Assembly: GCA_046153645.1 (NCBI GenBank)
Contig: JBJXGI010000029.1
Location: 1 to 15,252 of the forward strand
Reading direction: 5' to 3'
Origin: Elusimicrobiota bacterium
Lineage (GTDB): Bacteria > Elusimicrobiota > Elusimicrobia > F11
Length of the DNA: 15,252 bases
Shown piece after piece: positions 6,580 through 14,983 of this stretch. Each line of letters starts with the position of its first letter. The first letter of the stretch is position 1. The position numbers were made by a program, and so were the translations under genes. The notes beneath the pieces were generated by a model. The model was given only the letters and a program-made list of their open reading frames with translations. It searched no databases and had not been told where the DNA came from.

Positions 6580-7926
6580 TCAGGTCGGTAGAGGCCAAGG
6601 CGAGGCAAAAGTTTCCAAACGGCTGAACAATCCTTCAAACCAAGGTCTTCTTTTGGGGTTTAACCCGATGTGGAGAATCTTTTTTCTTGCTTTTTTCCCG
6701 AGCCAAGATCCTAATGCAAAGCAATGGAACCGCATGGTGGAAAGTTTCACAGCTTGAGGCGCTCTCAGAACAGCTTGCCGGAATAGACTCATCAAGTTGT
6801 AGGCCAATAACACCGTTCGAAAAGCCGCTTCGGTTCCATAAAAAGAATCCAGACAAAACCCGTTCATTCCAAAGTCATATTTCAGCTCTTCAATCCGGTT
6901 CTCCGCATCGGCACGACCGCGGTAGAGTCGCCACACCTCTGCCGGCGGCAATGTCAGATTTGTCACAAACGCTTGAACCCGATATCCAGGAACATTGATC
7001 AGTGTTCGCCCCACTGCTTCCGGACGTTCGCGAATATTCTGCCGAACAACGATGATTCGCCGGGGTGCACGCCAACTTTGCGCTTGATAAGTCATTTCCG
7101 AAACTTCGATTCCATCATCAACACGCAGCCAGTTCTTCAGTCCTCCAACCACGGACCTTATCACCGGGTTCATCCGGACAGCCACCACAAACGAAAGTAT
7201 TTTGTCTTCCAGCATATCGAAGAATTTACCGACGAAGAATCCGCTGTCGGCTCGCACCAGGCCTATCTTGTGTCGCTCTCCCAACAACTTCACGGACTCA
7301 TTAAAAAATTCAATAAAGCCATTGTTCGTGTTCGTGTTGCCGGATCGTAACCAAGCATGCAGAACCATCCGCACATCCGCTACAAACGCAAACAAGGGAT
7401 GGTGGCTCGCTCGTCCTTTTTTTGTCGGGTTGTAACCCACTTCCGCGCCTTCTTGTTCACCGTACCTTGTTACGACCGATGAATCAAAATCAAGAGTCAG
7501 TGTCCGGTTTGGCATTTGCTCCCAGAACCACCGGTTGATGTGACCGAAAATTTGATCCACGTCGGCTTGTTTAAACTTTCCAAAAAATCGAGTGAACGTT
7601 GAAACAGAAGCAATCTTTTTCCAGACAAATATTTCTCGTAGGGCGTCATCGAACCGAACGATCGCTGTGTGTGAAAATCGAATGCCCCCAATCCACACGC
7701 AAACAAGAAAACTTTCAATCATCGTAACAGGGTCATATCCGCGGTTCGATTTCGGTTCTGGCAATCCGCTCGTTTTCAATACCTCCTTCAGTCCCATGCG
7801 CATCATCATCTCTTTCACCAATCGGAGCCCGCCCCACGCGGTGATCGCTTTATCAGAAAATGTCCAATCCAGGCCTTCCTCAACCAGGACTTTTTTGTCC
7901 GTACTTGCAATACCGGTTTCATTCAT
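6580..7926 (-). CDS. IS1380-family DDE transposase (448 aa, apparently intact)
   Basis: ITAWGGL, TLDFDSSV (D), YNPTKKGRASHHPL, VRADSGFF (D), YRGRADAENRIEELK (YxxRxxxE); SD-like AAGGAAGGT just upstream of the ATG. Confidence 0.93.
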   Translation of the reverse strand: MNETGIASTDKKVLVEEGLDWTFSDKAITAWGGLRLVKEMMMRMGLKEVLKTSGLPEPKSNRGYDPVTMIESFLVCVWIGGIRFSHTAIVRFDDALREIFVWKKIASVSTFTRFFGKFKQADVDQIFGHINRWFWEQMPNRTLTLDFDSSVVTRYGEQEGAEVGYNPTKKGRASHHPLFAFVADVRMVLHAWLRSGNTNTNNGFIEFFNESVKLLGERHKIGLVRADSGFFVGKFFDMLEDKILSFVVAVRMNPVIRSVVGGLKNWLRVDDGIEVSEMTYQAQSWRAPRRIIVVRQNIRERPEAVGRTLINVPGYRVQAFVTNLTLPPAEVWRLYRGRADAENRIEELKYDFGMNGFCLDSFYGTEAAFRTVLLAYNLMSLFRQAVLRAPQAVKLSTMRFHCFALGSWLGKKARKKILHIGLNPKRRPWFEGLFSRLETFASPWPLPT

Positions 7927-8324: not shown

Positions 8325-9110
8325 ATGCGAAATAGGCATGTTTTTTCATTTTTCGGTGCTCTAGTAGGGCTTATTGTCCCTATGGGATGGTTTGTTTGGA
8401 GAGGAATTGAGGCCAAAAAATCATGGTGGCTTAAATGGATAAACACGGAACTGACAAAACATGGTGAATCCTATATTCCCATTACACTAATAGCCATTCT
8501 CATATTTGTGATTATTGGGTATTTAATAGGTAAATATAATGATGATATTTTAGATGAAGCACAAACCATCCAAGATCATAATCATGAACTCAATAGATTA
8601 GCCACCACAGACCAGCTAACAGGATTACTCAATAGTAGATACATCCATCAACAACTCGATATTATTATTGAAAACTCCCATAAATTATTTTTCAGCTGTT
8701 TATTGATTGATATAGACTATTTTAAAAAAGTGAACGACACCTATGGACACCCCATCGGAGATTTGGTCTTAATTCAAGTAGCAAAAATTCTTAAACAAAG
8801 TGTTAGATGGGCAGATTTAGTCGGAAGATTAGGCGGAGAAGAATTCATTATCATTTTAACCGAGACAAATGCAAAAAGCGCCTATGAGATAGCCGAAAGA
8901 ATTCGCGAACGGGTTCACATGGAAAAATTCATCTTTGATGATCATGTTATTCATTCAACTATTAGTATTGGTATTACAACTTTCCCCTCTCGTTTTTTAA
9001 ATGGAAAAAATGACATTTTACGAGTGGCCGATGAGATGCTTTATAAAGCCAAAAAATCAGGAAGAAATAAAACAATTACCTGGGAAGAACCACAAGAAAG
9101 AGTGGCTTAA
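8325..9110 (+). CDS. Membrane-anchored diguanylate cyclase (GGDEF domain)
   Basis: Two N-terminal hydrophobic helices and a coiled linker; ATTDQLTGLLN, LIDIDYFKKVNDTYGHPIGD, intact GGEEF active site with RxxD I-site (RWAD) 5 residues upstream, ADEMLYKAKKSGRN. Confidence 0.93.
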   Translation: MRNRHVFSFFGALVGLIVPMGWFVWRGIEAKKSWWLKWINTELTKHGESYIPITLIAILIFVIIGYLIGKYNDDILDEAQTIQDHNHELNRLATTDQLTGLLNSRYIHQQLDIIIENSHKLFFSCLLIDIDYFKKVNDTYGHPIGDLVLIQVAKILKQSVRWADLVGRLGGEEFIIILTETNAKSAYEIAERIRERVHMEKFIFDDHVIHSTISIGITTFPSRFLNGKNDILRVADEMLYKAKKSGRNKTITWEEPQERVA

Positions 9111-9139: not shown

Positions 9140-10537
9140 TCAGTTGGGACGACGCCAACGAAATTTATTTTTGGGACCTCTCGATTGATTTTCACGGTTC
9201 TCCCAAGGGCGGCTGGGCTTCGGTGATGATGGAGAAGTCGGACGATTGTCTTGTCCAGATTGACTTGGTTTTGGTGGGAATGATTGATGTTGTTTAGAAT
9301 GCTCTGAATATTGTTTTTTAGGGAAACCACCGTGAGATGCCCCTTTTGAGCGAAATGGACGAGAATGAGATGTTTTTTCTTTTACTTCATTAAACATCCG
9401 CGGTTTCGATTGATAGGGGAAATCAGGAATAATGCTTCTTGGAATAGGTTTCCGAATAAAATTTTCAATTCTTTTTAAGAAAACTTCCTCTTCTGGTGAA
9501 ACAAGAGTGAAAGCTTCACCCACTGACTGGGCTCTTCCCGTTCGACCAATACGGTGAACATAATCCTCGCAGTGACGTGGGACATCATAATTAATGACAT
9601 GGCTAATATCTTTAACATCGATCCCTCGAGCTGCGATATCAGTGGCCACCAAAATTTGATAACGCCGATCTTTAAACCCTTGCAAGGCTTGCTGGCGCTG
9701 GCTTTGGCTTCGATTGGCATGAATAACAGTTGTTTTTTTCCCTAAATCTTGAAGGGTTCGGTAAAGTTTATCTGCTCCATGTTTTGTGCGAGTAAAGATA
9801 AGAGCAGAAGTCATATTGCCCAGCTCCAAAAGAGCTTGTAATAGCGCTCTTTTTTGATCGGATCTAACAGGATAGGCCATTTGTGTCACATTTTCTGAGG
9901 TTGCAGACGAAGAAGGTGACAAATCAACGACCGCAGGGTTCTTAAGGAATTGATTCGTTAATTGTTTTATCTCCGCTCCAAAGGTGGCGGAAAAAAGCAT
10001 GGTTTGACGGTTCACAGGAACAAACGAAATAATCCGGCGAATACTGGGTAAAAAACCCATATCCAACATTCTATCGGCCTCATCTAAAATTAACGTGTGT
10101 ATATTCTTTAGAGAAACACTCCCTTGTTCCACATGATCGATTAAACGGCCCGGAGTTGCCACGACGATATCAACTCCAGCACGCAGTTCCTTTGCCTGAA
10201 GATGACTATTAGCGCCTCCAAGAACGAGAGCGGTTCTTAATCTTGTTCCCTTAACCAAACTGTTAGCAACAGAAACAACCTGCGCAGCCAACTCTCGCGT
10301 TGGAGTTAAAATAAGCGCAGACGGCCTTTGTGTTGGTGGATTCTGAATAAGCTTTTCAACAATAGGGATAATAAATGCACAGGTTTTTCCAGTGCCGGTT
10401 TGTGCGCAAGCACGGATGTCTTTTCCTTTTAGTGCCTCAGGAATCGCATGCGCTTGAATAGGTGTTGGCTCCGCATAACCAAGTGCCGTAATTGATTGAA
10501 ATAATGTTGGTGAAAGATTGAAACGTGAAAAACCCAT
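9140..10537 (-). CDS. DEAD-box ATP-dependent RNA helicase (RhlE-like) with basic disordered C-terminal tail
   Basis: Q motif (PTPIQ), AQTGTGKT, PTRELA, GG, TPGRL, DEAD, SAT, ATDIAARGID, HRIGRTGR; ~90-aa R/K/S/P-rich tail. No DbpA-type RRM domain is evident. Confidence 0.95.
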   Translation of the reverse strand: MGFSRFNLSPTLFQSITALGYAEPTPIQAHAIPEALKGKDIRACAQTGTGKTCAFIIPIVEKLIQNPPTQRPSALILTPTRELAAQVVSVANSLVKGTRLRTALVLGGANSHLQAKELRAGVDIVVATPGRLIDHVEQGSVSLKNIHTLILDEADRMLDMGFLPSIRRIISFVPVNRQTMLFSATFGAEIKQLTNQFLKNPAVVDLSPSSSATSENVTQMAYPVRSDQKRALLQALLELGNMTSALIFTRTKHGADKLYRTLQDLGKKTTVIHANRSQSQRQQALQGFKDRRYQILVATDIAARGIDVKDISHVINYDVPRHCEDYVHRIGRTGRAQSVGEAFTLVSPEEEVFLKRIENFIRKPIPRSIIPDFPYQSKPRMFNEVKEKTSHSRPFRSKGASHGGFPKKQYSEHSKQHQSFPPKPSQSGQDNRPTSPSSPKPSRPWENRENQSRGPKNKFRWRRPN

Positions 10538-10544
10538 AATAAAA

Positions 10545-10616
10545 CTCCCCGAGCTAGACTCGAACTAGCAACCCTCCCGTTAACAGCGGGATGCTCCACC
10601 ATTGAGCTATCGGGGA
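10545..10616 (-). tRNA. tRNA-Asn (anticodon GTT), CCA not encoded
   Basis: Minus strand folds as TCCCCGA TA GCTC AATGGTG GAGC A TCCCG CT-GTT-AA CGGGA GGGTT GCTAG TTCGAGT CTAGC TCGGGGA G. All four stems pair perfectly; discriminator G is followed by TTTTATT rather than CCA. Confidence 0.97.
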
Positions 10617-10656
10617 AATATCAGCGGATGTAAACTAGGAATGAATTCGTTGCAGG

Positions 10657-10665
10657 ATAATAACA
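10657..10665 (-). promoter_or_regulatory. Possible extended -10 element (TGtTATTAT) for the tRNA-Asn/helicase transcript
   Basis: TGn+TATTAT about 40 nt upstream of the tRNA 5' end, preceded by a T-rich tract. Confidence 0.3.
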
Positions 10666-10673
10666 AAAAAAAT

Positions 10674-13600
10674 TTATTTAAGCACAACTAACTTGCCATT
10701 ATAATGGCCACCGAACTCTTGGTCACATTGAACGAAATATAATCCAGGAGCAAGATCATCAGATTTTATTTCAACTCCGACTCCAGCAATGAAGTTTAAA
10801 TCGGAAACTTTTGCTCCCAGTTGATTATAAAGATGGCCAGAAACACATTGGGGGTAAATAGCAGGTTTTCCTGGCTCTGCCATTGTTCTTAAAGCTCCCG
10901 AATGAGAAGAAGCCCCGCCTCCTTGAGTTACCGTAATCTTTACATCATCAAAAACAACATTATCAAGGTTTCGGACAGTCAATCTGAAAATGTAAGTCCC
11001 CAGAGATGAAACACGCACCGTTGTATCAACAAGGTTTCGGTTTTCGATGGTCACACCAGAAGGGCCAGAAATGACCTCCCAAGTAGAGCCTAAGAGAGGA
11101 GGAAGAGATACAGAACCATCAAAGAAAATAGTTCCATCCAAAGGAATAGAAGTGTTGGGTGCTCCAAACTTATCAGAACCGGCACTGGCAAAAATTTTAC
11201 CGTCAATTCCAGCTTCCAATGTTTCACCTTCTACCATGTTACTATTTCCAGAACTATTCGCTGACGTATCAACAGCGCGAACTCTGGCAAAATAGCGCGT
11301 AGACGACTCAAGACCAGTTACACCAAAACTTGTTTCATTTCCAACAGAAACCACAATAGGGTTAGAGAAATTTGAATTATTGGAAACTTCAATACGATAC
11401 CCTACTAACCCAACATTATCTGTAGAAGGCGTCCAAGAAAAAATTAAAGATCGTGAACCGGCTTGAAGAAAAGTAAAGTTTTCAGGAATAGTGGGAGGAG
11501 AATTATCTGGAGAGCCCAACGAATTATTAAGGATATTCCCTCTCACATAATATAACCAAGAAGAAATTGCATCAGCATTAGATCTCAACACAGTTGGAAC
11601 TTCGAAATAATCCATTAATTCCTGATCTGTTTTAGTGGGTGTTAAATCCCAAGTGCTGGCAAGTCCTAAATAATTTTGAGTCCCCCACCCAAATTTTTGA
11701 GTAAATGACGGAGAAGCTTTTCCAAACCCATTGTTCCAGATCTCCTCTCCATAATATGACATTAGATAATCTTGTATCGGTACTTGATCCTCTGCTCTTT
11801 TCTTTCTAAGGCGAGTAACACCATGATCACCCAATCCAGCCAAATATACCCCCCCTCTGGGATCAACAGCCACCAACCACGGGTAATGAGGAGGACGTGT
11901 CGCACTTCGATACCCCCAACCCATCGGATAAGATAAAAGCCCTCTATCAAAAACAAACTTTGAAAGCCCACCTTCTGGCCCTACCCAGGCATAGACTTCA
12001 TTAAATCTACTGCCGTCTGGATCGCCATCAACACGATCCCCAACCGACATACACCAATAAGTTCCATCTTTTGGCCCCGAATTTCCCCATCTATCAATAT
12101 CCATCCAAGCCCAACCCCGATCAAAATCATAATGAAATTTCTGAAATAAATTGGCCCAAAGCCTGGTTTCACCAGTGACAGGGTTAATTCGCCGAATGGA
12201 GCCAAATCCGTAATCTAGAACACCAATATCTCCATTACTGAATACGCGCACACACTGAGGCGCATAAATCTCTGGTTTAACGTTATTCGTGGCTTCTATG
12301 GCCGATACCGTAAATTGTGTATGTGCTCTGTTACTTAAATGATTGTGATAATCAAGACCTTGATCTTTTAACTTTTGTGCGACACCTGGTGTCCCAAATA
12401 AAGTGGAAACCACACCATTTCTTGTAATTTGTCGAATAGCGTCATTATCTTGATCAGTAACATACATGACATCACGGACAGGGTCAAAAATAACTGAGGT
12501 GGGGCCATTAAAACGCGCAGCATGTCTAAGTCCATCTGTGAACCCTTTAGAATGATCGGGATCTCCTGCAAAGACGGAAACGGTGGCATTGGTTCCCCGA
12601 GAATCATTTAATTCGATTTTCCAAATACAATGATCTTCAAAAGCAGCCACATACCAAATATTGGGATCTCGTGGATCGGGCGTCACATCAAGAGGCAAAT
12701 GAAACCCCGCTAGGTCGCCGCCAATGTTGCCTTCAATCCAATTGCCCTTAAGTTCCATATTTTTCCTAACAGTAGACAAAGGTTTAGTTCCCCAAACAGG
12801 GTCTTTATCCGGCTTTACTCGCCATCCTGCCACGGTAATAATTTCTCCATCAGGAAGCAACATCCCCACCCGGCCCCCAGTTTCGGCAAACAATAAACGT
12901 CCTTGAGAATCAACTTGCCCCCCAACAAAATTACTCATCCAACCAATCCCACGGGGACCATCTTTAAATGGAAGTTTTTCATGCTCTTTAGCTTTGTTAC
13001 CTCTGACATCATCATTCCCATGTTTTGGACCAATTGATCGAATAAATGGTTTACCTGGATGAGGTGGATCTTCCCACCACAATTGAGCTCCTTTAAAAAG
13101 AGGCGTATGAGGCATTAACTTCTCTTGAAATAAATCTGCTTCATGGGGTGGATCAATCCAAGGTTCAACGTTGGGGTTTAAAGGATAAGAAATCGCTCTT
13201 CGATCAGCGCGATTAACGTATACAACTCCAGCACCGTCATTAGAATCAGTCTGAATAATAGGAACTGTGTCTGAAAGTGGCCGTCCTCTTGTTATATGAA
13301 GAAATGCACGAGTCGGTTTATAGTCATTAATAGTAGTATCCCCAACTAAAACCACACTGATATCATGAAAACCATCTTCAAGACCATCAAGAGCAGGATT
13401 ATCAATACTCAGGTCAAATGTAAAAGGAGCAGACAAAAGGCCCGAAACAGGAATATCTCTAATGGTGTAATACATTTGAAAACCAACACTTTCAGGAGCA
13501 ATAACATTCCATGCGGCCCCATCGTACATTTGAACACCCAAAGTCACCCTTAAATCTTCTTTTGCGGTGGGATGTCCTTGATGAAGATGCATCCAAATAG

Positions 13601-13751
13601 GATCGTTCATTTCATCTCCATCTACTTTATAAATAGAAATAATTTTTTTAGCTAGAGGATCCGGCCATTCAGCAGCTTTTAATGGCAAACAAAGAGTTAT
13701 GGCCAAAAAAAAGGTTGAACTATTTTTTAAGAAACAATTTAAACTTTTCAT
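10674..13751 (-). CDS. Large secreted protein: uncharacterised N-terminal region with NHL/beta-propeller-like repeats, fibronectin type III domain, PKD/K319-like Ig domain and T9SS type A CTD-like C-terminus
   Basis: Signal peptide (..FFLAITLCLPLKA); NHL-like GFTDGLRHAARFNGPTSVIFD...MYVTDQDNDAIRQITRNGVVSTLFG; FN3 DNSPPTIP...FSWTPSTDNVGLVGYRIEV...YFARVRAVD; PKD-like ASAGSD...LDG...TWEVISGP...GTYIFRLTV; tail LYNQLGAKV...DLAPGLYFVQ...GKLVVLK. Its start overlaps the upstream stop (ATGA). Confidence 0.8.
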   Translation of the reverse strand: MKSLNCFLKNSSTFFLAITLCLPLKAAEWPDPLAKKIISIYKVDGDEMNDPIWMHLHQGHPTAKEDLRVTLGVQMYDGAAWNVIAPESVGFQMYYTIRDIPVSGLLSAPFTFDLSIDNPALDGLEDGFHDISVVLVGDTTINDYKPTRAFLHITRGRPLSDTVPIIQTDSNDGAGVVYVNRADRRAISYPLNPNVEPWIDPPHEADLFQEKLMPHTPLFKGAQLWWEDPPHPGKPFIRSIGPKHGNDDVRGNKAKEHEKLPFKDGPRGIGWMSNFVGGQVDSQGRLLFAETGGRVGMLLPDGEIITVAGWRVKPDKDPVWGTKPLSTVRKNMELKGNWIEGNIGGDLAGFHLPLDVTPDPRDPNIWYVAAFEDHCIWKIELNDSRGTNATVSVFAGDPDHSKGFTDGLRHAARFNGPTSVIFDPVRDVMYVTDQDNDAIRQITRNGVVSTLFGTPGVAQKLKDQGLDYHNHLSNRAHTQFTVSAIEATNNVKPEIYAPQCVRVFSNGDIGVLDYGFGSIRRINPVTGETRLWANLFQKFHYDFDRGWAWMDIDRWGNSGPKDGTYWCMSVGDRVDGDPDGSRFNEVYAWVGPEGGLSKFVFDRGLLSYPMGWGYRSATRPPHYPWLVAVDPRGGVYLAGLGDHGVTRLRKKRAEDQVPIQDYLMSYYGEEIWNNGFGKASPSFTQKFGWGTQNYLGLASTWDLTPTKTDQELMDYFEVPTVLRSNADAISSWLYYVRGNILNNSLGSPDNSPPTIPENFTFLQAGSRSLIFSWTPSTDNVGLVGYRIEVSNNSNFSNPIVVSVGNETSFGVTGLESSTRYFARVRAVDTSANSSGNSNMVEGETLEAGIDGKIFASAGSDKFGAPNTSIPLDGTIFFDGSVSLPPLLGSTWEVISGPSGVTIENRNLVDTTVRVSSLGTYIFRLTVRNLDNVVFDDVKITVTQGGGASSHSGALRTMAEPGKPAIYPQCVSGHLYNQLGAKVSDLNFIAGVGVEIKSDDLAPGLYFVQCDQEFGGHYNGKLVVLK

Positions 13752-14983
13752 TTCATCTCTTTTGATGGGAGAATAATCTTCATTTGTTTTTCAAGGTTTG
13801 CAGGGTCATCAATTAAATGACGATTCAAAGCATAAATTTCTTTCCAGCGGTACACACTCCCCAACTCTCTCTTGGCAATAAGCGCCAATGTATCACCGGG
13901 TTTAACAACATAAATTTTTCTCAATTTTATTTTGACTGATTGCGAAGGGTTTGAATTTAAATGGGGTTTGGGTTTTCTCACAGACACCTTATCAAGTGTA
14001 TTTTTTGAAGAAACCTTTTTCATTTTCTTTTCTTTAATAACAGGAAGAGATTGCGGGCTTAAGATAGGAACCACGGGTGCCCCACCAAATTTCATGCCCA
14101 GACTCAATTTATGTTGCGATTGAAATTGATTTATAAGTCCAAAGGCGTAGTCGATGGATGATTGACCAAAAAGAAACCCTGTCCCCATGGTAAATTCACC
14201 ACTCCCAGGCATAAGTTTGTATCCGGCTCTTAAAGCCAAAGGCCCAAATAAAGTTTCAAAACCAATAGAAGGTGTCCAAATTTTCTCATTAACCAGAAAA
14301 GGGAAATCCATCATAAAGCTGGTTAAATTCCCTTTAGGAATTAATAGATATGAAAAACCGCCTCTCAACGTTCGCGGTAAATTTGTTTTTTCGCTCACAT
14401 ATTGAAGTGGGGTTCCATAGTTCAAAGCCGCCAAACCAAAATTCAAACGTCTTGAATAAGAAGACTGGATACCGAAATCAACCGCATACGCACTGGCCTT
14501 GACCTTCTCAATTAAAGTAGATGAAAAATATTTTCCGGTCATTCCAATATGCCCAAAAGAACTTTTCCGACCAACAGACAAAGCGGCACTGTAATCACGC
14601 TGAGCATTCACAGATCTCACCTGACCACTCCCATCAGCCAAATGAATTTCCCCTCCGTTGTAATATCCGATATTAATTCCGGCGCTATATTTCCGTCCAG
14701 GAATACCCAAAATAAATTGCCCATATGAATCGTCGGCCAAACCATTTTGATAGTAAAGAGAAGCTTGATTTTTCCTTAAAGTAGAAACAACGGAAGGATT
14801 AAAAACAGCAGCAGAGATATCATCTTTAACAGCAGTAAAAGATTGTCCCACTGCGGCAGACCGGGCATTCCCATCTTTTAAAAGAGTTAAACCAGAAGAC
14901 TCACTTTTTACTCCCGCGTAAGAGGAAAACGTGGGAAATAAGAGAGAAAAACTAAAAAGTATTCGAGTAAATTTCGTTTTCAT
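13748..14983 (-). CDS. PorV/PorQ (UPF0164/FadL-like) outer-membrane beta-barrel protein with C-terminal LysM domain
   Basis: Signal peptide; GLTLLKDGNARSAAVGQSFTAVKDDISAAVFNPS matches the PorV-family N-terminal pattern (GARxxAMG...DxSAxxxNPA); amphipathic strands AYAVDFG, NYGTPL...LPRTLRGG, ALRAGY, IDYAF, HKLSLGMKF; Lys-rich linker, then LysM YVVKPGDTLALIAKRELGSVYRWKEIYALN...IILP. Confidence 0.85.
   Translation of the reverse strand: MKTKFTRILFSFSLLFPTFSSYAGVKSESSGLTLLKDGNARSAAVGQSFTAVKDDISAAVFNPSVVSTLRKNQASLYYQNGLADDSYGQFILGIPGRKYSAGINIGYYNGGEIHLADGSGQVRSVNAQRDYSAALSVGRKSSFGHIGMTGKYFSSTLIEKVKASAYAVDFGIQSSYSRRLNFGLAALNYGTPLQYVSEKTNLPRTLRGGFSYLLIPKGNLTSFMMDFPFLVNEKIWTPSIGFETLFGPLALRAGYKLMPGSGEFTMGTGFLFGQSSIDYAFGLINQFQSQHKLSLGMKFGGAPVVPILSPQSLPVIKEKKMKKVSSKNTLDKVSVRKPKPHLNSNPSQSVKIKLRKIYVVKPGDTLALIAKRELGSVYRWKEIYALNRHLIDDPANLEKQMKIILPSKEMK

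Follow-up and report, generated by a model that had tools for sequence, protein, structure and literature searches.

A tRNA-Asn gene directly upstream of a DEAD-box RNA helicase gene in an Elusimicrobiota bacterium: possible formation of an mRNA 5′ end by tRNA processing

The closest described arrangement is mitochondrial tRNA punctuation, reportedly put forward by Ojala, Montoya and Attardi in 1981. It is also described in the accessible part of a preprint (bioRxiv 10.64898/2026.07.30.741833). The locus analyzed here, in a stretch of 15,252 nt from an Elusimicrobiota genome (the window), resembles mitochondrial punctuation in that a tRNA gene lies directly 5′ of a coding sequence, so that excision of the tRNA would give a near-leaderless mRNA and remove structure at the start. 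Unlike mitochondria, however, this is a free-living-type bacterial genome with normal Shine–Dalgarno (SD) use, the tRNAs in question do not abut their genes but are separated from them by spacers of 4–15 nt, and only about 9% of the tRNAs are involved. The analogy hence fails on genome-wide use and also on RNase Z, which was not found here, and the 3′ cut must thus come from another nuclease. In the leader control of thrT–tufB in Salmonella, a tRNA operon is said to be co-transcribed with a protein gene while structure controls access to the start. There, tufB reportedly has its own spacer and SD in a conserved arrangement, whereas we find a 7-nt spacer in one genome.

For tRNA 3′ maturation, the available part of PMC8860583 describes for E. 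coli that many tRNA precursors are cut by RNase E at AU-rich elements 1–3 nt after the tRNA end and then trimmed with RNase T or PH, and the available part of PMC5222698 gives RN|WUU as the RNase E cleavage motif. Our locus shares with this system an AU-rich element behind the tRNA, an RN|WUU match and an RNase PH. In E. coli, CCA is encoded and what comes off is a trailer or small RNA; here, in contrast, CCA is encoded in just 15 of 185 family tRNAs and an mRNA would be released. There is a loose likeness to Synechocystis rimO–crhR as presented in the part available of 10.1101/2021.03.26.437152, namely a DEAD-box gene in second position of a predicted co-transcript, a predicted buried AUG and a candidate RNase E site upstream. 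In that system, however, a protein gene comes first, cleavage takes place about 138 nt upstream and autoregulation was shown, whereas here we have a motif match and a predicted helix. Leaderless bacterial mRNAs and those with very short, unstructured leaders initiate SD-independently and are made by transcription or processing, according to the accessible portions of PMC4929434 and PMC10783764; their 5′ end stems from a promoter or a toxin in these texts, whereas here it would come from tRNA maturation. Within a partial coverage of the literature, we found neither a bacterial tRNA acceptor strand acting as SD nor tRNA excision or RNase E-type punctuation yielding a leaderless bacterial mRNA. 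Particular to this locus is that an ancestrally leaderless gene would have exchanged its promoter for a tRNA, in a family that uses SDs normally and in which no RNase Z was found.

With about even confidence, we propose that a rearrangement exchanged the leaderless promoter of the helicase gene for a tRNA, and that an RNase E/G-type cut frees a short-leader mRNA for SD-independent translation. The gene, ancestrally leaderless and SD-free, would have lost its own −10 promoter when a rearrangement at the locus, in the simplest case a deletion, joined its ATG to the U-rich trailer of tRNA-Asn, encoded nearby. Transcription of the helicase would now start at the tRNA promoter. Within the precursor, the acceptor stem and probably also a leader–AUG helix would cover the start region. 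RNase P would take off the 5′ leader, and the RNase E/G-type cut, putatively 1–3 nt after G73, would release both tRNA and helicase mRNA. The tRNA would then be trimmed by RNase PH and receive its CCA, and the mRNA with its leader of about 4–6 nt would presumably be translated by the SD-independent route of its orthologues. The GGGGAG at the tRNA end would simply come with tRNA-Asn identity. Should this explanation be confirmed, tRNA maturation would at the same time form mRNA 5′ ends in a family that has ordinary SD translation and lacks RNase Z, the enzyme used in mitochondria. The helicase would thereby be a natural swap, in which a promoter sets a leader of 0–5 nt in orthologues and tRNA processing one of about 6 nt in the gene here. 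This makes a long-debated point testable, namely the efficient translation of processed, 5′-monophosphorylated short-leader mRNAs.

Structure of the tRNA-Asn–helicase junction

Table 1. Features at the junction of tRNA-Asn and helicase gene (window coordinates)
Feature	Position	Strand	Remarks
Extended −10 promoter of the tRNA (TG-T-TATTAT)	10657..10665	minus	inferred from sequence
Co-oriented 1025-aa gene	10674..13751	minus	ends 57 nt before the tRNA; possible read-through source
3′ part of the pre-tRNA 5′ leader	10617..10629	minus	predicted pairing with 10541-10532 (spacer, AUG and GGU), lengthening the acceptor stem
tRNA-Asn(GTT)	10545..10616	minus	N1 = 10616, discriminator G73 = 10545; CCA not encoded
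GGGGAG, 3′ acceptor strand and discriminator	10545..10550	minus	SD-like; normal tRNA-Asn end
U-rich spacer TTTTATT	10538..10544	minus	tRNA trailer and entire helicase leader (from sequence)
Helicase ATG	10537-10535	minus	7 nt past the tRNA end
RhlE-like DEAD-box RNA helicase, 465 aa	9140..10537	minus	intact; Pfam DEAD and Helicase_C

The features of the junction are compiled in Table 1. Judged by its sequence, the encoded protein is an RhlE-like DEAD-box RNA helicase: the motif strings Q, I, Ia, Ib, II, III, IV, V and VI are all present, as are two RecA-like domains, and the best NCBIfam match is RhlE (NF007882) with 416.9 bits, below the curated cut-off of 743. Its open frame reaches just nine codons 5′ of the ATG and contains no other ATG, GTG or TTG there, and all 10 family orthologues examined begin with MGF at the same place. 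The helicase start is thus secure and an alternative start codon is ruled out. In an estimate of dN/dS for the helicase, dS was saturated.

The tRNA-Asn(GTT) forms a cloverleaf with a 7-bp acceptor stem; the ARAGORN boundaries are one base longer on each side than those in Table 1. It is the sole tRNA-Asn found in the genome (43 ARAGORN rows; the assembly is 99.7% complete), and its sequence is 100% identical to the tRNA-Asn of the relative G008. Two DNA contigs of one study span the tRNA–helicase junction with zero differences, which makes a misassembly unlikely; these contigs possibly come from the source sample and hence argue only against misassembly.

An extended −10 promoter probably serves the tRNA, with a predicted transcription start at about 10650 that would give the pre-tRNA a 5′ leader of about 34 nt. 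Similar TGn-TAnnnT boxes were seen by eye at a similar distance 5′ of tRNA-Asn in relatives; the box here was absent from the output of a −35/−10 promoter scan. A promoter inside the tRNA is ruled out, its best hexamer being GAGTTT, and no −10 box lies 4–11 nt 5′ of the helicase ATG. Because there is no internal promoter and the tRNA has a promoter of its own, co-transcription of tRNA and helicase appears likely. The observation made in a preliminary description of the locus is confirmed. It had reported the succession of GGGGAG, 7 nt and the helicase ATG on the minus strand, a CCA-less tRNA whose G73 runs directly into the spacer, a correctly placed start codon and no room for an intergenic promoter.

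Directly 5′ of the tRNA, a PorV/PorQ-family and LysM gene is followed by that of the 1025-aa, secreted-looking protein (window 10674-14983, minus strand). No homologue of this pair was found in 12 compared regions of relatives, and no terminator was called between the 1025-aa gene and tRNA-Asn. The variable region behind tRNA-Asn contains an apparently intact IS1380-family transposase (above cut-off; window 6580-7926, minus strand), about 1.2 kb beyond the helicase. A terminator-like hairpin at 9143-9159, called on both strands, lies inside the last helicase codons and faces a convergent GGDEF gene ending at 9110.

Ancestral state of the helicase gene

In the family orthologues, we found no tRNA within 1.5 kb upstream (0/10; likewise 0/19 for class-level best hits) and no SD motif before the ATG (0/10). 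These counts refer to 10 genomes, as the eleventh family genome held only a fragment. Eight of the 10 orthologues carry a −10 box (TA...T) ending 5–11 nt before the ATG, as opposed to 20% of this genome's starts, a comparison in which the orthologues count as kin and not as independent cases; in the remaining two, the ATG abuts an upstream stop codon. A leaderless peak is also present in this genome, with 20 TATAAT-like boxes at gap 6 vs about 4 at other positions. In a tree of 39 helicases, the protein falls into a 100/99 clade with those of G001, G006, G008 and G010 and one metagenome protein. The four family orthologues of this clade carry the −10 signature, and the metagenome protein is coupled to an upstream gene. 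From the −10 signature in the orthologues and the placement in the tree it follows that the helicase is ancestrally leaderless and SD-free.

In G001, tRNA-Asn and the helicase gene share a strand, with the helicase gene 11.7 kb downstream; in G008, the two are divergent and 6 kb apart. From these distances we conclude that both were neighbours. Since, in addition, what follows tRNA-Asn is different in each relative and the helicase gene is ancestrally leaderless, a derived rearrangement is the simplest origin of the junction. A single genome showed the tRNA-Asn–helicase arrangement. When closer relatives were sought by protein-pattern scans, the outcome was one distant GTDB match and six metagenome loci, two of them at 72% identity. 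At the metagenome locus L056 (260 nt around the start), an upstream stop lies 1 nt before the ATG, with an AGGA motif and no tRNA.

Nucleases, precursor folding and access to the start

RNase Z, which the preliminary description had named as the processing enzyme, was found neither by two models nor by a motif scan of the genome. TIGR02651 gave no match over cut-off in 41 class genomes and the second model, NF000801, none in 12 family genomes (this one and 11 others); among 14 controls, 9 pass with both models. Partial RNase Z-model matches of up to 94 bits occurred in some other families of the class. This genome encodes three metallo-beta-lactamase-fold proteins, one ComEC-like and the other two, by eye, glyoxalase II-type-like and lipoprotein-like. 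For RNase J and RNase Y, too, nothing in this genome exceeded the cut-off; RNase E/G (C86:62761-63969) and RNase PH passed theirs. Furthermore, there are two PolyA_pol-family (CCA/poly(A)) nucleotidyltransferases (G000:C66:25569-26492 and C96:3495-4922; G000 is this genome), possibly a split pair of a CC-adding and an A-adding enzyme. Most family tRNAs are CCA-less, yet no RNase Z, J or Y passes the cut-off here, which makes tRNA 3′-end formation notable in itself. Among the modes of control considered in the preliminary description, translation only after processing is close to our best explanation, and what falls away from it is RNase Z as the enzyme.

Trailers behind family tRNAs are U-rich, with a T fraction of 0.41–0.59 in nt 1–8 vs 0.25–0.30 in nt 21–40. 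RN|WUU with a cut 1–4 nt after N73 occurs in 72/170 CCA-less family tRNAs vs 14/170 at +21–24 nt, and right behind the tRNA in 5/35 GTDB controls among the matches listed. At the present junction, G73-U|UUU fits the RNase E motif, and a cut there would leave a 6-nt leader. Processing would thus give an AU leader of 6–7 nt, as against the 7 nt expected in the preliminary description. The U-rich trailers could also be terminator tails rather than cut sites, and from such U-tracts the same RN|WUU enrichment is expected. It further counts against our explanation that a 5′-monophosphate end stimulates further RNase E attack, as stated in the accessible part of PMC3997798; the released mRNA may hence be short-lived.

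In the modelled precursor, GGGGAG is fully paired, that is, buried in the acceptor stem as had been proposed before. Opening of the start region is calculated to cost 12.8 kcal/mol in the precursor and 8.8 kcal/mol after leader removal (both for −13..+12), and 0.9 kcal/mol after full processing to a 6-nt leader. Spacer and AUG alone (−7..+12), however, open for about 1.0 kcal/mol after RNase P action, so the 3′ cut may be unnecessary. Initiation might then occur SD-independently on the uncut or RNase P-cut transcript, with the ribosome loading on the AU-rich spacer and first codons and the tRNA simply being the first cistron. In this genome 474 of 740 unambiguous starts (about 64%) have no SD motif anyway, and SD-less spacers of 12–22 nt are common at family junctions; SD-less junctions thus do not prove a need for processing. 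We nevertheless consider this alternative unlikely, as a 30S footprint reaching −13 would need 8.8 kcal/mol, which exceeds the 75th percentile of the genome (7.7 kcal/mol), and tRNA precursors normally are cut fast.

A wider form of our favoured explanation would be that this RNase Z-less family makes near-leaderless mRNA 5′ ends by RNase E/G cuts in tRNA trailers, and that here the pre-tRNA shuts the helicase start until maturation or unwinding, so that helicase synthesis would report on tRNA processing. To this we assign a rather low probability.

The 3′ part of the pre-tRNA 5′ leader is predicted to form a helix of 10 bp, four of them G-U, with spacer, AUG and GGU. The mean unpaired probability around the AUG is 0.09–0.10 vs 0.43–0.45 with shuffled leaders (p ~0.005–0.01), and only 1/200 mononucleotide-shuffled and about 1% of 400 dinucleotide-shuffled leaders did as well. 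The helix was noticed before testing and thus is post hoc, with a value of about 0.18 after correction for 18 junctions. Leader–AUG pairing as a general rule is ruled out, as it was present at 1/18 junctions and absent from the 17 others. That the modelled helix might hold back translation until processing has taken place is a lead rather than a finding. With such a gate, translation would need RNase P or unwinding, possibly by the helicase itself, and helicase output would be coupled to tRNA maturation. The gate would resemble rimO–crhR, where, in the part available of 10.1101/2021.03.26.437152, structure hides the AUG and RNase E cleaves upstream of it. We consider it very unlikely, however, given the post hoc nature of the helix and its G-U content, the leader length that rests on a predicted promoter, and the lack of a homologue to show covariation.

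tRNA–gene junctions in the family and the SD-like tRNA end

Our junction census comprised 185 tRNAs from five family genomes, i.e., all 41 canonical tRNAs of this genome and, from relatives, 35/45 (G001), 43/74 (G003), 32/43 (G005) and 34/48 (G008) tRNAs. A homology-supported ATG lies within 150 nt behind 66/185 tRNAs, and tight junctions number 7 at ≤10 nt and 9 at 11–15 nt (16/185). Among these 16, only the Asn–helicase junction has an SD-like match, the other 15 being without SD; in longer spacers, an SD occurred only at 16–25 nt (2/9) and 26–40 nt (3/5). The helicase junction has the layout of tRNA punctuation, with the tRNA 3′ end a few nucleotides from the start (gap 7 nt) and no SD in between. 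Punctuation is not a genome-wide rule, however, since a gene starts ≤15 nt behind 5/41 tRNAs of this genome. In a GTDB control with 125 usable tRNAs among the matches listed, four had a long frame at ≤15 nt, two of which were counted as real. Compared with this listed sample, tight junctions are in excess in the family (16/185 vs 2/125, Fisher p 0.011), with the proviso that orthologous junctions are not independent in these statistics; for CCA-less tRNAs alone, the difference to the listed sample is not significant (15/170 vs 1/35, p 0.32).

The cleanest test case for punctuation is tRNA-Met–dusB, a tRNA-modifying enzyme behind a tRNA. In this genome, tRNA-Met(CAT) ends 6 nt before dusB without SD (G000:C86:2808-3897). 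Both genes are found on the same strand in 10/11 relatives, with gaps of 6, 8, 15, 18, 34, 91, 118, 125, 399 and 1118 nt, and in the three genomes where the gap measures 6, 6 and 8 nt there is no SD. The tRNA-Met end before dusB is C-rich and unable to act as SD. Outside the family, several dusB genes have a −10 box just before the ATG. Other SD-less junctions of this genome are tRNA-Ala(GGC)–rsmD with a gap of 12 nt (G000:C30:7904-8564) and tRNA-Gly(CCC) 14 nt before a membrane protein gene (G000 C96 near 2257; 7 nt in G003). In addition, tRNA-Arg(CCT) lies 12 nt before a TPR/YbgF-like gene (G000:C78:7227-7963), and 4 nt in G008 and 7 nt in G006. As dusB, rsmD and others have the same layout, the arrangement has no special link to the helicase, to which the preliminary description had tied it.

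The preliminary description had furthermore taken the tRNA end for a selected or regulatory SD, a role that we find poorly supported. GGAG does lie 7 nt from the ATG, matching the modal SD spacing of the genome (6–7 nt), and its duplex with the standard anti-SD is worth −7.4 kcal/mol; the genome's own 16S is unassembled and the anti-SD was taken from the family, where it stands at the end of four 16S genes. Yet the complete tRNA-Asn genes of relatives all end in GGAG (7/7, as GGGGAG or GAGGAG), and behind them are different genes or none, the nearest supported start being 48 nt off. tRNA-Asn makes up 5/9 of the SD-like tRNA ends among the 185 family tRNAs. As GGAG is an ordinary tRNA-Asn end, the match is not beyond chance and needs no selection. 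Annotators should hence be warned that, with a gene starting shortly behind it, any tRNA-Asn end will look like an SD.

One might still imagine a switch in which GGGGAG needs an unfolded or misfolded acceptor stem to act as SD, in the cold, under stress or in nascent RNA, with feedback on the helicase. Real SD use in the genome (266/740 unambiguous starts vs 64/740 in a control window) would suit such a switch, as would the spacing and duplex strength given above and the GGGGGT tRNA end that falls at SD distance in the two shortest tRNA-Arg(CCT) junctions (4 and 7 nt). DEAD-box genes are moreover often self-regulated, e.g., crhR in the portion available of 10.1101/2021.03.26.437152. However, opening at 8.8–12.8 kcal/mol exceeds the duplex return, which disfavours SD use, and in the secondary-structure model the acceptor stem stays closed at 10–50 °C, tighter in the cold, with an unpaired probability of GGGGA of ≤0.02. 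The 5′ strand would, in addition, already have been made when GGGGAG emerges. With SD-less starts at 15/16 tight junctions, GGAG ends throughout the related tRNA-Asn genes and none of the 10 orthologues conserving the arrangement, we regard the switch as highly improbable. The same data speak against the cold or misfolding sensor and the conserved tRNA-to-ATG spacing of the preliminary description, the latter set beforehand as a test. The locus shares with SD-sequestering leaders an SD-like sequence at the correct spacing that is paired in a stem; upstream conservation in orthologues was not seen, nor is the modelled stem marginally stable or switchable, and the arrangement is not a conserved SD-sequestering leader.

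Hardly probable, finally, is a near-neutral accident in which acceptor stem and U-tract form a leaky terminator and low read-through is tolerated owing to the paralogue (a second DEAD-box gene elsewhere in the genome, contig C9), for although trailers are U-rich in the family, a weak terminator-like call exists at 10564-10548 and the arrangement is confined to one genome, terminator calls across the region are not above shuffles (6 vs 3.5 ± 2.1), the U-tract is merely U4AUU, the reading frame and all motifs are intact with an ordinary branch length (0.14), and conserved genes such as dusB have the same layout.

A GTDB scan for tRNA-Asn with an ATG 4–10 nt downstream gave at least 122 loci. Among the matches listed, eight had long frames, none of them a helicase, and two were judged real, yvcK (L178) and a GIY-YIG nuclease (L122); the other six were judged by eye. 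The pattern required GGAG, and the frequency of this ending therefore is not obtainable from the scan. At yvcK, in an uncultured Clostridiales bacterium, a CCA-less tRNA-Asn lies 7 U-rich nt before the gene, the one other such case among the matches listed and a point in favour of the SD switch. In an uncultured gammaproteobacterium (L445), a CCA-less tRNA-Gly is followed after 7 nt by a glycosyltransferase gene, i.e., the same geometry in an unrelated bacterium. GIY-YIG-type nuclease genes start 8–127 nt behind tRNAs at several loci (G003 L289, L122, G000 C71 and C66), with L122 assigned by a Pfam scan and the others by their N-termini. A region of G003 (C14:52800-65450) contains a large array of about 25 tRNA matches of unusual sequence, which probably lies on a mobile element.
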